Shown here: in pieces, positions 1,585 through 54,118 of the stretch
How positions within the stretch are numbered: the stretch's first letter is position 1
Layout: every line of letters begins with the position of its first letter
DNA from: Escherichia coli
GTDB lineage: Bacteria > Pseudomonadota > Gammaproteobacteria > Enterobacterales > Enterobacteriaceae
Length of the DNA: 64,000 nt
Assembly: GCF_024502345.1 (NCBI RefSeq)
Contig: NZ_JALDNN010000003.1
Reading direction: 5' to 3' (one strand)
Notes under the pieces: generated by a model
What the model was told of the DNA's origin: nothing
The model's input: the letters and a program-made list of their open reading frames with translations, nothing else
Databases searched by the model: none
Translations under genes and position numbers: made by a program

Positions 1585-2102
1585 GATTGCTCCTTTTGCA
1601 AAAATTCTAAATCAAATGATTGAGTGACTACAATTTGTTTGGAATCAAATGAACCTGGGAATTTATATTTAATACTGAACAGTAATGGCAATGTGAGTCC
1701 ATCTCGTGAAGACTGTGAGATGTTCTTAAATGAGTTATTAATAAATGTTAATTGGTCATTGTTATCGTAACAAAGACCAAGTAAACCAACTGTGGGCACC
1801 GTAAAAATTGTAACTGAACTAGGTGATATCAACTGTTTTCCACGTGACGAATAGGTGCAACGACTCCCGCCGAGATTCAGATCAGACAACTCAATAAATT
1901 CTTTGGTCCCATTCTTGGCGAGTAACCAGACATCAGTGCCTGAACTCTCAATCAGAAAAGTAACTTTTCCGTCGGTGTAGGCTTCAGTTCTGTTGCTCAT
2001 TATAGGGTCGAACCCTACCGAAGGGAGGACTGCAATTTTGCTTCCAACCGACTGACATCCAGTCACAAGTAAGGTAAGAATAAATGCTGAAACTCTAATC
2101 AT
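1581..2102 (-). CDS. Putative lipoprotein, unknown function
   Basis: Signal peptide with lipobox-like LLVTGC; start overlaps the stop of the upstream gene (translational coupling). Confidence 0.4.
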   Translation of the reverse strand: MIRVSAFILTLLVTGCQSVGSKIAVLPSVGFDPIMSNRTEAYTDGKVTFLIESSGTDVWLLAKNGTKEFIELSDLNLGGSRCTYSSRGKQLISPSSVTIFTVPTVGLLGLCYDNNDQLTFINNSFKNISQSSRDGLTLPLLFSIKYKFPGSFDSKQIVVTQSFDLEFLQKEQS

Positions 2103-2934
2103 TTTCAGTCCTCATAGTCGTTTTCTGTATGGTACTGATATCGAAGTTTTCTCCTGGGTAAATTTTCAACTCTTTGGTGAAATAATCTGAACCACCGAGG
2201 AGGTTGTTACGCTTTCCAACCCAAACGAACGACGAAAATTTAAAAGTCCTTACTTTTTCTGCCGCTCTGATCTTGTAGGTATGTGAAGGTAATAAAGATG
2301 CACTAGCGTCCTCCGGGATTGCGATAGCGGGTTGAAGTTTTTTGGGGGCATTGATACGTAATGCGATTTCTGGAGAGGGGACATAGTCGATTGACGATTG
2401 TTGTGAATCTGACGGTAGGGGCAGGGTGAATTTTTTACCCTGATCTGGGCCAAAAATGGCAATAACCTCTTTTTTCTGCTTTGTTACGGACACTAACGCC
2501 TGTAACGGGGTACTGGATAGATCATTGACGAATGAAATTGTCATGCTGGAACCAGGTTCTAACCAGAGAATTCGTTTCCCGGATGCATCTTCATCAAGGG
2601 AGATAAATTTTGATATAAACACGCCATTTTTTGCAATGATGGAAAATTCAATTTTGGGTATTACAAGATTTAAAGGAGTTGAAGCAGAGTCGTTTTCAAT
2701 CTGAAGATAGTTACGCTTAGTCATGCTTGTTTTAATTACTGGTCTTTGTCGACCATCAACAAGCCACATTCCGTTGACGTAATTTGCAGCAATAGTAATA
2801 AATTCATAGTTAACCCCAGTTTTGGCATCAGATAGCTGGGACGACGGTATCGGGGTTTTAGTCGATGCATTTGTAATGTTGGATGGACCTAAAAATGCCA
2901 GCAACGGCAAAATTATCAGTTCTAATTTAAGCAT
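2095..2934 (-). CDS. Exported protein, unknown function
   Basis: N-terminal hydrophobic signal MLKLELIILPLLAFLG; tightly coupled to flanking genes. Confidence 0.4.
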   Translation of the reverse strand: MLKLELIILPLLAFLGPSNITNASTKTPIPSSQLSDAKTGVNYEFITIAANYVNGMWLVDGRQRPVIKTSMTKRNYLQIENDSASTPLNLVIPKIEFSIIAKNGVFISKFISLDEDASGKRILWLEPGSSMTISFVNDLSSTPLQALVSVTKQKKEVIAIFGPDQGKKFTLPLPSDSQQSSIDYVPSPEIALRINAPKKLQPAIAIPEDASASLLPSHTYKIRAAEKVRTFKFSSFVWVGKRNNLLGGSDYFTKELKIYPGENFDISTIQKTTMRTEND

Positions 2935-3905
2935 TATAATGTGGCCTCTATATTATTATCATTTGAATCCAGGTTAAGTGGTGCAGTGTTTTGTGTGTAA
3001 ATACCGTTTTTATTCAGGATCATTTGGTGGCAAATCAGGGTCGGTGTAGATGCCAGGATCAACTCGACCAGTGTTATTGCCGGAACTGTAGTAGGCGGAA
3101 TACCTGGTGCCAGTAGTGCTGGGCTACTGATTTCTGACATGTACAGAGAACCTGTATTGATGTGGAGGCAGTTTCCTATGAGTACCGGTAAGTTAGTCAG
3201 CGGTAGCCCATGGGCCTTTCTGATGCTGTTAACTGGATTCCGACCCAACACTACGAGGTTTACATCGCTGACATTCACTGGCCTGACTGCGTGATCCATG
3301 CCGTATAGAAACTGACTCTGAAAAATATTCACATTTGCCTGATTAAAAGCGAGGAGGGCGTTATATGTATTGTTGAAGCCCTGCCGTATGTCTGTGTAAT
3401 CGGATGGGCAAATACCTATAGAAATATTGCCTTTAAAAAGCACCTTCATCACAGTAGCCAGCTGGGTGGAGAGCAGTTTGCAGATTTCCTCTTCAAGATA
3501 GTTGCGGTTAATTTGTTTATGCCATCGCCCGCCTCTTGCACACCACCGTTCATTAAGAAATGTGCTTGGATAATAAGTCCTGCGGTCTTTATTTATGGGT
3601 AAGAGCTTTTTCAGCATCTCTTCTCCGGCCCCGGCAGCTGAGAACACACGAACAGAACGGCCGTCAAAAATCCCTGTGTTGATCGCTGTCATTAACTCCA
3701 TAGGCTCAGGTCCATAATCGAAGAGATTTCCTGTGGAGAAAACGATCAACTCCTCATCAGGTTCTGATATCGAATGGATAAGGTTACATAGCGTCGAATA
3801 ATGACCATGAGGGTCTGCCAGAAAGAAAACCCTTCCTGAAAAATTAGTCAGATCAATTGTCTGGACGTGCTCGGATGCCATAAATGCCTCTTTCTGAAAT
3901 TGCAT
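2934..3905 (-). CDS. Putative metallophosphoesterase-like protein (calcineurin-like fold), first gene of operon
   Basis: Motifs FFLADPHGHY and GNLFDYGPEP resemble the DxHG / GDxxDRG metal-binding motifs of PPP-family phosphoesterases, but they are degenerate. Confidence 0.35.
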   Translation of the reverse strand: MQFQKEAFMASEHVQTIDLTNFSGRVFFLADPHGHYSTLCNLIHSISEPDEELIVFSTGNLFDYGPEPMELMTAINTGIFDGRSVRVFSAAGAGEEMLKKLLPINKDRRTYYPSTFLNERWCARGGRWHKQINRNYLEEEICKLLSTQLATVMKVLFKGNISIGICPSDYTDIRQGFNNTYNALLAFNQANVNIFQSQFLYGMDHAVRPVNVSDVNLVVLGRNPVNSIRKAHGLPLTNLPVLIGNCLHINTGSLYMSEISSPALLAPGIPPTTVPAITLVELILASTPTLICHQMILNKNGIYTQNTAPLNLDSNDNNIEATL

Positions 3906-4254
3906 TAATACTACCGGATGAAAGTCATCAATTTTTTCGATAAGAGGGGTAATTTTTGTGAGTGTCCAAAATGGAGCTAGAAATCATTTTTCGGTTTCCG
4001 AGCCGTATCAACTGTAATGCACCTCAGTTGTTTTATTTTTGGTATAAAAACGCTGAGCAAAATATAGTTTTTGCGTGTGTTGCTCAGGTGTACATGAATC
4101 TAGGGTTGTATCTGGATTAAAACTGAAGGATTCTTTTTTAACAAGGACTTACGTTAGTGTTTTGTCCCGTTTAATGTTGACCTAAAGCAACCATTGGTGT
4201 ATAAATTCCATAACAAAAGTGGTGGGCTAAATAAACCAATACGAGGGTTTCTGC

Positions 4255-52808: not shown

Positions 52809-53021
52809 ATGTCCGAAACTAAGCAGGCGTATTTAATGAAATTTCGTAAGTGCTCTTCTTTCGACACACTGGAAAAAGTATTCGAACGACTCTGTGAAAA
52901 AAATGCAGGTATAGCATCACTGGAAATTTCCGGGGCATATGACCATCGAAAAGCTGAACTGACAATGAAGAAACTCTACGATAAAGTACCCGCAAGCGTA
53001 TGGACACTGGTCCGTCAGTAA
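52809..53021 (+). CDS. hha: Hha/YmoA-family nucleoid-associated modulator
   Basis: MSETKQAYLMKFRKCSSFDTLEKVFE...AYDHRKAELTMKKLYDKVPASVWTLV parallels Hha [29 protein letters not shown]...[26 protein letters not shown]; start set at the ATG after the SD AAGG. Confidence 0.65.
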   Translation: MSETKQAYLMKFRKCSSFDTLEKVFERLCEKNAGIASLEISGAYDHRKAELTMKKLYDKVPASVWTLVRQ

Positions 53022-53197
53022 TATGAAGATATTGGTAACCAATTTATCGCCGACTTTTCAGGAAAGGAGATTTATGAAAACGTCAGCAGTAAAATTAAAA
53101 TTTTTTAATATTCTATTAATACCTCTTCAAATAAGCTTAATTAGTAAAGTCATCACGTCATTTAAAATCCTGTTTCCGCTCCATGGTGGTAACTCGT

Positions 53198-53839
53198 ATG
53201 AGAATTAAACATCTAATATTTTTACCTGTTCCCTTCATTTCCTTTTATTTAAACGCGGCGAGCCTGGACGAAATCAATCAAAAGCTGGATGAAGGTTACC
53301 GTTACGCCTGTAACGCAACTCAGACGGGTAATGCAGAAGCCGCCTCCCTCGCGCTGGAGAACTACAGAACAAAATTCATCAACTCAGCATCACGATCTGG
53401 TTTCAGCGAGATAATGAATGTAGAAATAAACAAAGTTGTCGCGGAATTTTTCAGAAAGGGCATGATCCAGGGGAACACCAGCACTGGGGCCTGTGAGACT
53501 CCAGCGGAGCTGCTGCTCCAGACCTCTCAGGCGGTTTATTCCCGCCAGTCAAAGTCAGCACTGGCGTCAGCCCTCGATGGTGTCCGATTCACTGAATATG
53601 CGGCACAGGCCTACCCGATTTTTTATTCAATCCAAAGTACAGGTATCAGTGAGGATGAAGTAATTGAACAGATTAATAAAATAGGAAACAATGCAATAAT
53701 TAATAACCAAAATGCAATTGATGTCAGTAATGCGACAAATGCAATGAAAGAAGTAGCGAAAGTCCTTTTTTCAGCCCGAAGTGACCCGGAGCTCATGAAA
53801 TTTATGATGGATTATATTAATAACCACAAACTGCATTGA
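53198..53839 (+). CDS. Exported hypothetical protein
   Basis: Signal-peptide-like N-terminus MRIKHLIFLPVPFISFYLNAAS. Confidence 0.35.
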   Translation: MRIKHLIFLPVPFISFYLNAASLDEINQKLDEGYRYACNATQTGNAEAASLALENYRTKFINSASRSGFSEIMNVEINKVVAEFFRKGMIQGNTSTGACETPAELLLQTSQAVYSRQSKSALASALDGVRFTEYAAQAYPIFYSIQSTGISEDEVIEQINKIGNNAIINNQNAIDVSNATNAMKEVAKVLFSARSDPELMKFMMDYINNHKLH

Positions 53840-54118
53840 AGGTAATTGCGGTGTATAAAACAAAGCCATTTTCGGCCAAAAAATGAGTCAGCTGAAGAAA
53901 CGCTCGTTAATTCCGAATCCGTCCAGATTAATATGGCACACTGCTGGTGGAGGTTTTGGCAATCGGAAAAGTAACTTTTCACCCGTGTCTAATCATCATC
54001 GTTTTATCAATCCGCTCAGTTACGGTATTAAAATCTCACGAAAAATAGTCTTCTTATCGAAGTGTCATGCTGTCTTCGCCCGATATAGTGAAGGTATGTA
54101 TTCAGCGGGGCCACTGAC

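Follow-up and report, generated by a model that had tools for sequence, protein, structure and literature searches.

A palindrome dispersed across the backbone of IncHI plasmids is a predicted site for a dimeric DNA-binding protein, with an orphan ParB-like protein as candidate binder

We studied a 64,000-nucleotide stretch of Escherichia coli DNA, called the window below, which is a segment of an IncHI1 plasmid of the R27/pHCM1 type and in which a short palindrome, AAAGTNACTTT, recurs in the plasmid backbone. The palindrome belongs to an array of 40 to 80 copies that extends across the conserved backbone of the whole IncHI family. Comparison among relatives showed the sites to be under purifying selection at the DNA level, and from its sequence features the motif is predicted to be a selected double-stranded DNA site for a dimeric protein. 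In the explanation that we put forward, with confidence evenly balanced between belief and doubt, AAAGTNACTTT is the recognition site of a dimeric DNA-binding protein of the IncHI backbone and its copies form a plasmid-wide operator or loading array, the likeliest binder being candidate P3, an orphan ParB-like protein of 401 aa (WP_000108722.1) encoded at 92336-93541 of plasmid R27. String and topic searches of the openly searchable literature, with subscription-only papers outside their reach, returned no report of the motif.

Counted with any centre base, the window holds 15 exact copies of AAAGTNACTTT, and 19 sites at up to one mismatch against 3.3 expected. The 11-mer core AAAGTWACTTT was found in 14 exact copies against 0.07 expected, a number equalled in none of 100 shuffles, and the 13-mer AAAAGTWACTTTT in 7 exact copies against 0.01 expected from shuffled sequence (11 against 0.12 with up to one mismatch); the excess over chance estimated in the first-pass annotation of the window was thus borne out. 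That annotation had described every site as the 13-mer or a one-mismatch variant of it. The sites at 11319, 12493 and 16354, however, differ from the 13-mer at the two outermost positions while their 11-mer cores are exact, and the real, invariant unit is the 11-mer core AAAGTWACTTT and not the 13-mer. The extended consensus is GAAAAGTWACTTTTC, and the symmetrised logo reaches to +/-7 (G-A-AAAGTWACTTT-T-C), with zero information past +/-8. Of the 78 copies on the complete IncHI3-type Klebsiella plasmid pKpn33002, 67 have A or T as centre base, W being far commoner than S, and A and T are equally frequent at this position. In its anatomy the motif is a 6-1-6 palindrome that occurs about once per 2-4 kb, in promoters as well as deep within genes.

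The complete R27 plasmid (180 kb) carries 46 exact copies with any centre base and 42 with an A or T centre, against 0.2 expected under a second-order Markov model. Another 25 sites match at one mismatch, where 9.8 would be expected, and no other 11-mer is as frequent as the motif on this plasmid. Together with the 78 copies on pKpn33002, these counts establish the motif in plasmids related to that of the window. It is also the top palindrome in the syntenic 45-kb regions of a Klebsiella IncHI1-like plasmid (88% nucleotide identity), IncHI2 (about 73-76%) and IncHI3/pNDM-MAR-type plasmids (about 67%), and in a Yersinia intermedia contig and 15 metagenome loci. The proteins of R27 and pKpn33002 are 25-65% identical, and the site is letter for letter the same. 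The description of the motif as confined to the backbone was upheld in the window, where the two accessory blocks, the IS26/MCE/IS1/mltB insertion (about 43-51 kb) and a Tn7-like element (about 58-64 kb), hold no copy. Likewise, no copy was found in the accessory DNA of R27 (28 kb; 8.6 expected, P=2e-4) or at 26-97 kb of pKpn33002, which comprises 71 kb of resistance, metal and insertion sequence (IS) DNA. When 100,044 genomes were scanned for paired copies, the matches listed came from unrelated AT-rich genomes; among them, nine contigs of a Bacillota metagenome-assembled genome, JAEXFI01 (L061-L068), show a pair of AAAGTNACTTT copies at a constant distance of 118 bp, which apparently belongs to a repeat element of other origin that shares the 11-mer by chance.

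Between IncHI1 and IncHI2, 9 of the 10 alignable window sites have kept all ten specified bases, compared with 6.1% of the 11-mers across that alignment (P=1e-10), and two further intergenic sites lie at matching places. Against the 88%-identity relative, 12 of 12 sites are kept over a background of 30% (P=6e-7). On R27, 21 of the 46 copies are fully intergenic in a backbone that is 18% intergenic, a 2.5-fold enrichment (P=1e-5), so that the earlier statement that most copies lie inside genes is true of the window (11 of 16) but not plasmid-wide. The intragenic copies span the three codon phases, where they read KVTF or KVTL (phase 0), KLL (phase 2) and xSNF or SDF (phase 1), which excludes a shared peptide motif; the different reading frames that had been reported are therefore real, and the codon phases and the positional conservation agree with the proposal of a DNA-level signal.

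A reading in which the motif is no operator, but a restriction-modification or methylation target, an RNA signal, a small hairpin, a shared peptide or the remnant of a mobile element, appears to us very improbable. The GTNAC core is a known type of restriction specificity, and IncHI plasmids encode a C5-methyltransferase (71% identical between R27 and pKpn33002) together with a Dam-family enzyme; restriction targets, however, are avoided, whereas the motif is more than 200-fold over-represented and held in place. A hairpin is rejected because folding is impossible with a stem of 5 bp and a loop of 1 nt, the equal use of A and T at the centre speaks against RNA pairing, and flanks that are uninformative past +/-8 bp do not fit a repeat resembling a miniature inverted-repeat transposable element. 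Taken together, the selection, the codon phases, the intergenic bias, the symmetric logo and the unfoldable stem point to a double-stranded DNA site read by a symmetric dimer.

Over its first 20 kb the window matches pHCM1-type IncHI1 plasmids of Salmonella Typhi at 99.9% identity. The window begins at the start codon of the Par1 parB gene and continues through the Tra2 genes (htdAFK, rsp, trhF/P-W-U-N, trhI), a long R0001-VWA-toprim operon and a Tus-like gene, beyond which follow the IS26/MCE/IS1/mltB insertion, a backbone island (integrase, hha) and the Tn7-like element. The copies in the window are given below; no strand is assigned to any of them, and their conservation refers to the 88%-identity Klebsiella IncHI1-like plasmid (L007) and to IncHI2 (L008).

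1957-1967: motif AAAGTAACTTT, exact also as the 13-mer, in a hypothetical coding sequence at 1581-2102 (minus strand), codon 46, KVTF; kept at the orthologous place in L007 and L008.
7230-7240: motif AAAGTTACTTT within htdF (7002-7436), codon 77, KVTF; kept in L007 and L008.
9076-9086: motif within rsp (8116-12414), codon 321, KVTL; 10 of 10 specified bases the same in L007 and L008.
11320-11330: motif within rsp, codon 1069, KVTL; kept in L007 and L008.
12494-12504: intergenic motif, 37 bp past a terminator-like hairpin (12434-12457) and 184 bp upstream of trhF/trhP (12688); counterparts at the matching intergenic place in L007 (19892) and L008 (19807).
14854-14864: motif at codons 5-8 of trhU (14840-15892), KLL; kept in L007 and L008.
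16355-16365: motif within trhN, codon 147, KLL; kept in L007, lost in L008.
21367-21377: motif within trhI, codon 399, KVTF.
22034-22044: one-mismatch CAAGTAACTTT, left partner of a double site with centres 14 bp apart, in the trhI-R0001 intergenic region.
22048-22058: intergenic motif, 91 bp after trhI and 297 bp upstream of the open reading frame (ORF) 22355-23230 (R0001); kept in L007 and L008.
23644-23654: uncertain one-mismatch AAAGTAGCTTT within a coding region.
28511-28521: motif within the VWA-domain gene, codon 368, ESNF; kept in L007 and L008.
32266-32276: motif within a hypothetical gene, codon 110, KSNF; kept in L007 and L008.
35856-35866: intergenic motif between two ORFs, 28 bp from the end of the first and 139 bp before the second (36005); counterparts at the matching place in L007 (43253) and L008 (43135).
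40563-40573: motif AAAGTGACTTT, with a G centre, within the Tus-like gene, codon 116.
40700-40710: motif within the Tus-like gene, codon 162, KVTF.
53968-53978: intergenic motif in the backbone island by hha, 141 bp upstream of ORF 54119-55192 (357 aa); same arrangement in R27 (155504).

All 14 loci of the first-pass annotation exist, although two had to be repositioned (from 53947-53959 to 53967-53979 and from 32266-32278 to 32265-32277), and the copy AAAGTGACTTT at 40563-40573 had been overlooked. What had been taken for a perfect 23-bp palindrome at 22035-22057 consists of two fully complementary 10-nt arms around ATA, its left copy being the one-mismatch CAAGTAACTTT; this left partner is degenerate in both L007 and L008 and is thus the weaker member of the double site. 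The one-mismatch AAAGTAGCTTT is identical in both relatives, but the local DNA is 90-96% conserved, which renders the identity uninformative. Several intragenic copies recur in the IncHI3-type plasmid pKpn33002 (L009): the copy at the trhU start (offset +31 in R27, +13 in pKpn33002), a copy in traN at nearly the offset of the trhN copy (22059, +434 versus +440) and a copy in the helicase gene at the offset equivalent to that in trhI (27165, +1197 versus +1194).

The proposal that the 12494 site lies in a control region was substantiated, since the intergenic region that holds it has promoter activity in an E. coli lacZ fusion (PMC7366339). R0001, the expression of which rises 9-fold at 25 degrees C (PMC7366339), is the first gene of the long downstream operon, and its R27 and pKpn33002 orthologues each have an upstream copy. 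Between the double site and R0001 lie two hairpins (22111-22152 and 22190-22229) with 17-nt arms that are 88% and 76% complementary and that could be a terminator or attenuator, a small RNA or a single-strand promoter-like element. The Rfam search of the window gave no match for these hairpins and returned an IS3-type frameshift element only (the IS1222/IS3-family ribosomal frameshift element, 42706-42823, 156.6 bits), which marks an IS3-family insertion at the junction of backbone and accessory DNA. Furthermore, the IS1 of pHCM1 (L001 20137-20834), located between a lipoprotein gene and trhI, is absent from the window at about 20130; beyond 20 kb, window and pHCM1 coordinates differ by 775 bp.

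Orthologous genes of R27 and pKpn33002 share a copy, at most 450 bp upstream or just past the start, at trhA (the AC pilus operon), trhY, trhH, trhU, the divergent mobI/trhR region that holds oriT, the immunoglobulin (Ig)-like surface protein genes, R0001 and one orphan ParB-like gene. The oriT region of R27 between mobI and trhR (L005, 108436-108580) additionally carries 5-6 copies of the repeats ATAGGGTCACTTTT / AAAAGTGACCCTAT, which share the CACTTTT half of the motif, are absent from pKpn33002 and may be relaxosome-accessory sites or half-sites for the motif-binding protein. The motif could also be the cis element of the TrhR/TrhY-HtdA circuit, bound by the activators TrhR/TrhY or by the repressor HtdA, a reading that we judge unlikely. 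An htdA mutant derepresses 139 of the 181 expressed R27 genes and leaves the transposon, cit, tet, mucAB and parAB unaffected, and this split between backbone and accessory genes mirrors the distribution of the motif (PMC7366339); moreover, R27 and pKpn33002 alike have copies ahead of the AC (trhA) and H/R operons. However, the R27 promoters of the F operon (the standard TrhRY/HtdA reporter), of the Z operon and of htdA contain no copy at up to one mismatch, for which reason we rejected TrhR, TrhY and HtdA as first choice. In addition, the effect of HtdA on TrhR/TrhY is reportedly exerted at the protein level, conserved copies deep in long genes are unexpected for a classical activator, and a search of HtdA, TrhR and TrhY for a DNA-binding domain detected none.

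The Par1 partition ParB encoded at 1-1008 of the window, which had been named as one candidate binder, is an improbable choice, even though the scattered palindromes of RK2 and IncC plasmids are bound by the partition ParB (PMC11790492; PMC10954446) and the Par1 parB gene is present in all IncHI lineages. Were Par1 ParB to bind the sites as dispersed parS or operators, it would act like KorB on RK2 or ParB on IncC; it is, however, a P1-type protein (Pfam PF08775) and not of the KorB type, and parA/parB stand outside the plasmid-wide co-regulated set of backbone genes (PMC7366339). The parA promoter region of R27 contains no copy at up to one mismatch, and the IncHI2 and IncHI3 loci have no exact copy near upstream of parA. 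Each lineage instead carries a tandem array of 27-42 units directly upstream of parA, the unit of which is lineage-specific while the dispersed motif is invariant: 27 units of 52-54 bp with TCGCCA and ATTTAAC in R27, an array of related units in IncHI2 and an unrelated 66-bp unit repeated 42 times in IncHI3. A 20-bp palindrome, TATGCGTAAACTTTACGCAT, likewise stands directly upstream of parA, in 2.3 copies; this palindrome and the tandem arrays, positioned as follows, are probably the Par1 operator and centromere.

R27 (L003) 25381-25426, 25602-26744 and 27544-27846: parA-upstream palindrome and arrays.
IncHI2 (L008) 3461-6038: parA-upstream array.
IncHI3 (L013) 7628-10380: parA-upstream array.

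The TCGCCA that the IncHI1 and IncHI2 units carry along with ATTTAAC is the B-box hexamer of P1 parS. Compared with a P1-type parS (A-box ATTTCAC, B-box TCGCCA), the motif is without a B-box, dispersed and invariant among lineages. Lineage-specific arrays that adjoin parAB behave as a partition centromere does, which makes the dispersed motif an unlikely site for Par1 ParB.

A site that stays invariant while plasmid proteins are 25-65% identical would be easily explained by a slowly evolving binder, that is by a conserved DNA-binding protein of the Enterobacterales host, for the recruitment of which the plasmids would have accumulated sites. We hold this to be unlikely. To our knowledge no Enterobacterial factor has this consensus, and ParB-family sites, such as the universal chromosomal parS, can remain unchanged even as the protein diverges. 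No copy at up to one mismatch was present in 50 kb sampled from the E. coli K-12 chromosome, and in a crude test with a synthetic double site on 5426 E. coli genomes the long matches fell 256 times on plasmids and 4 times on chromosomes. A Tus-like protein was considered as binder and discarded as at most remotely conceivable: no TGTTGTAACTA was found on R27 or pKpn33002, and the motif is symmetric whereas Tus is monomeric. Ter is an asymmetric 21-23-bp site with the core GTTGTAACTA, with which the motif has GTAACT alone in common.

We therefore return to P3 as the likeliest binder. Besides Par1 ParB, R27 encodes three orphan ParB-family proteins at 40890-41966, 45191-46348 and 92336-93541 (P3), all outside the window; no parA adjoins P3 or the other orphans, the only parA being that of Par1. 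The two orphans other than P3 have the accessions WP_001015069.1 and WP_001281654.1, and Par1 ParB is WP_001278833.1. P3 matches Pfam HTH_ParB and, by sequence, ParB DNA-binding domains in the PDB. Its AlphaFold2 model (mean predicted local distance difference test score 70.4, predicted template modelling score 0.52) is confident at residues 15-250, after which a disordered linker and a helical C-terminal part are predicted, and the best Foldseek matches to the model are ParB-CTPgammaS, RK2 KorB-KorA (8qa9, template modelling score 0.65), Noc and Spo0J; the model thus shows P3 with a ParB fold. One to four copies of the motif are positioned 96-430 bp upstream of P3 in all lineages with an orthologue (36-100% identity), namely R27, IncHI2, Yersinia, pKpn33002 and 15 metagenome loci, with offsets of -100/-218 in R27, -96/-222 in IncHI2, -109/-210 in Yersinia and -116 to -419 (four copies) in IncHI3. 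In the alignment of the P3 promoters the proximal copy is the best-conserved block. A site at the promoter of the binder itself is accordingly found for P3 in all lineages, but not for Par1 ParB/ParA, and a second dispersed palindrome was looked for on R27 and not found. The copies at its promoter, the predicted ParB fold and the lack of a rival palindrome make up the pattern of an autoregulated protein of the ParB/KorB type with its sites. The tblastn records for P3 reach about 90% of the counts for IncHI transfer genes in each identity tier (204 versus 219 at >=99%), and the PADLOC defence-system models gave no matches to the four ParB-family proteins.

Box II of P3 is the invariant R97-Q-G-x-C-R-x-R104-A, that is QG(A/H)CRxRA in place of the canonical GERRxRA; the arginine equivalent to R80 of Bacillus subtilis is kept, the E and the first R are replaced, and Box III reads (L)xGN, the canonical features of nucleotide binding being GERRxRA and the ENxxRxxL glutamate. 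Nucleotide binding by P3 is plausible, whereas canonical cytidine triphosphate (CTP) hydrolysis is doubtful. An orphan ParB-like subfamily of IncHI and IncC plasmids shares GFNTR..G.GE.YY and RQG(A/H)CRxRA (alignments A1, A2). The IncHI orphans have a conserved cysteine at the GERRxRA position, where the IncC member has GHRRRRA, and by their sequences they may form a distinct nucleotide-pocket variant of the ParB/Srx fold.

Several observations weigh against P3 as the binder or against the way in which it would act. Because its Box II is atypical, a CTP-clamp mechanism is uncertain. The recognition helix is only partly conserved between IncHI1 and IncHI3 (KTEQHLRQ versus VSVTHVRK), while the site is identical, and the three orphan paralogues of R27 differ in their recognition helices. 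All 25 metagenome loci are IncHI-like with the same motif, and this invariance leaves no covariation between site and protein. Since conserved upstream copies are also found at many other genes, the argument from P3 autoregulation is suggestive only. Finally, a one-mismatch copy, AAAAAGTACCTTTTT (R27, L003 45094-45108), stands 85 bp upstream of the second orphan gene (45191-46348); a search for operators of their own at the other two orphans revealed no clear one, and with the copy at the second orphan the paralogues cannot be told apart by their own operators. The same orphan gene is divergent from a Dam-family methyltransferase gene.

With P3 as the binder, its dimers would bind the palindrome through the ParB helix-turn-helix, and the promoter copies would set the transcription of the backbone operons and of P3 itself, the targets including the trhA, mobI/trhR and trhF-P operons, the Ig-like genes and the R0001 operon. 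The conserved intragenic copies would add further points for nucleation or clamp loading and so extend coverage to the entire backbone, though not to acquired DNA. The effect might be either silencing, as with KorB and with zygotic induction after transfer, or anti-silencing against H-NS/Hha, as with VirB. The identity of P3 as binder, the sign of the regulation and nucleotide-dependent sliding are points that we infer. More tentatively, P3, which has no ParA, a cysteine in its nucleotide box and 40-80 invariant loading sites, might coat the IncHI backbone as a partition-independent “self-chromatin”.

The array resembles several known systems. As had been pointed out, the likeness to the KorB operator set of IncP plasmids is close: the KorB operators (OB, TTTAGCSGCTAAA) of RK2/RP4 are 13-bp 6-1-6 palindromes like the IncHI motif (PMC11790492), the two sets are similar in density and agree in having promoter and intragenic sites as well as sites far from promoters, and both are conserved among relatives. 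RK2, however, has 12 OB on 60 kb, about 1 per 5 kb, compared with 1 per 2-4 kb and 4-6 times more sites in IncHI. KorB, the binder of OB, is a helix-turn-helix protein of the ParB fold, to which the P3 model corresponds in its match to 8qa9, P3 being a candidate binder still; KorB is moreover a partition ParB that works with IncC (a ParA) and KorA/TrbA, whereas P3 is an orphan that has a degenerate Box II (GxCRxRA) and no parA beside it. In the sister MOBH family, IncC/IncA plasmids carry 12-14 scattered backbone palindromes with the core TTTCACATGTGAAA, often at transfer-operon promoters, and the IncC parS sites were bound by the plasmid ParB in electrophoretic mobility shift assays (Kiss et al. 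2024, PMC10954446). The IncC site is a 22-bp inverted repeat unlike the IncHI motif in sequence and length, and its binder is the partition ParB of parAB053, with one site overlapping its own promoter, whereas the promoter of the IncHI partition ParB is motif-free and served by its own tandem arrays. The IncHI motif is absent from the 40-kb IncC locus examined (L015). This locus, from the IncC plasmid IP40a, contains four intergenic ACTTTCACATGTGAAAGT (2669, 3128, 9648 and 12984), which are the published IncC parS sites (PMC10954446), one of them 30 bp upstream of the operon with the IncC orphan ParB-like gene.

Noc of Bacillus subtilis is a ParA-less ParB paralogue with about 70 dispersed palindromic sites (NBS), as is proposed for IncHI; one IncHI orphan weakly matches the Noc model (TIGR04285, 1.5e-7), and Noc structures are among the fold matches of P3. 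Noc, however, is a chromosomal, membrane-binding protein with control over cell division, and nothing of this kind is indicated for IncHI. HerB/YfjB of the F plasmid is likewise an orphan ParB-fold protein from the leading region of a conjugative plasmid with a role outside partition (preprint, PMC13370423), but it has 652 aa with extra domains and binds the host chromosome with no consensus site, whereas IncHI has a sharp consensus with its sites on the plasmid. VirB with virS (Shigella pINV) and BisD (ICEclc) are ParB-fold proteins that have been turned into regulators of transcription and work from a specific site over a distance; silencing by H-NS is opposed by VirB, and H-NS/Hha control applies to IncHI genes as well (PMC7366339), but these elements have few sites each, unlike the IncHI array. 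Compared with KorB and IncC, the IncHI array differs in its sequence, in its 4-6 times greater number of copies, in having no link to the partition operon and in its probable orphan binder with an atypical box, and it may realistically prove to be a distinct variant among the dispersed operator/parS arrays of plasmid global regulators.

Multidrug resistance in typhoid Salmonella (IncHI1), mcr-1 and extended-spectrum beta-lactamase genes (IncHI2) and NDM in Klebsiella (IncHI3) are carried by IncHI plasmids. The backbone genes of these plasmids are known to be co-regulated en bloc, but hitherto with no cis element described. The invariant 11-15-bp site offers a concrete handle, in that it points to sites for mutation and to a few proteins for binding assays; it can also serve as a signature by which IncHI backbone sequence is told from acquired DNA. 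Should the binder be the orphan ParB-like protein, the principle of ParB-fold plasmid regulators known from KorB and the IncC ParB would extend to a non-partition protein, at a time when orphan ParB-like proteins of plasmids are only now being characterised. If P3 did coat the backbone as self-chromatin, it would set the global silencing and the derepression seen in htdA mutants, or counteract H-NS/Hha, and transfer and establishment of every IncHI resistance plasmid might then be controlled from a shared point.

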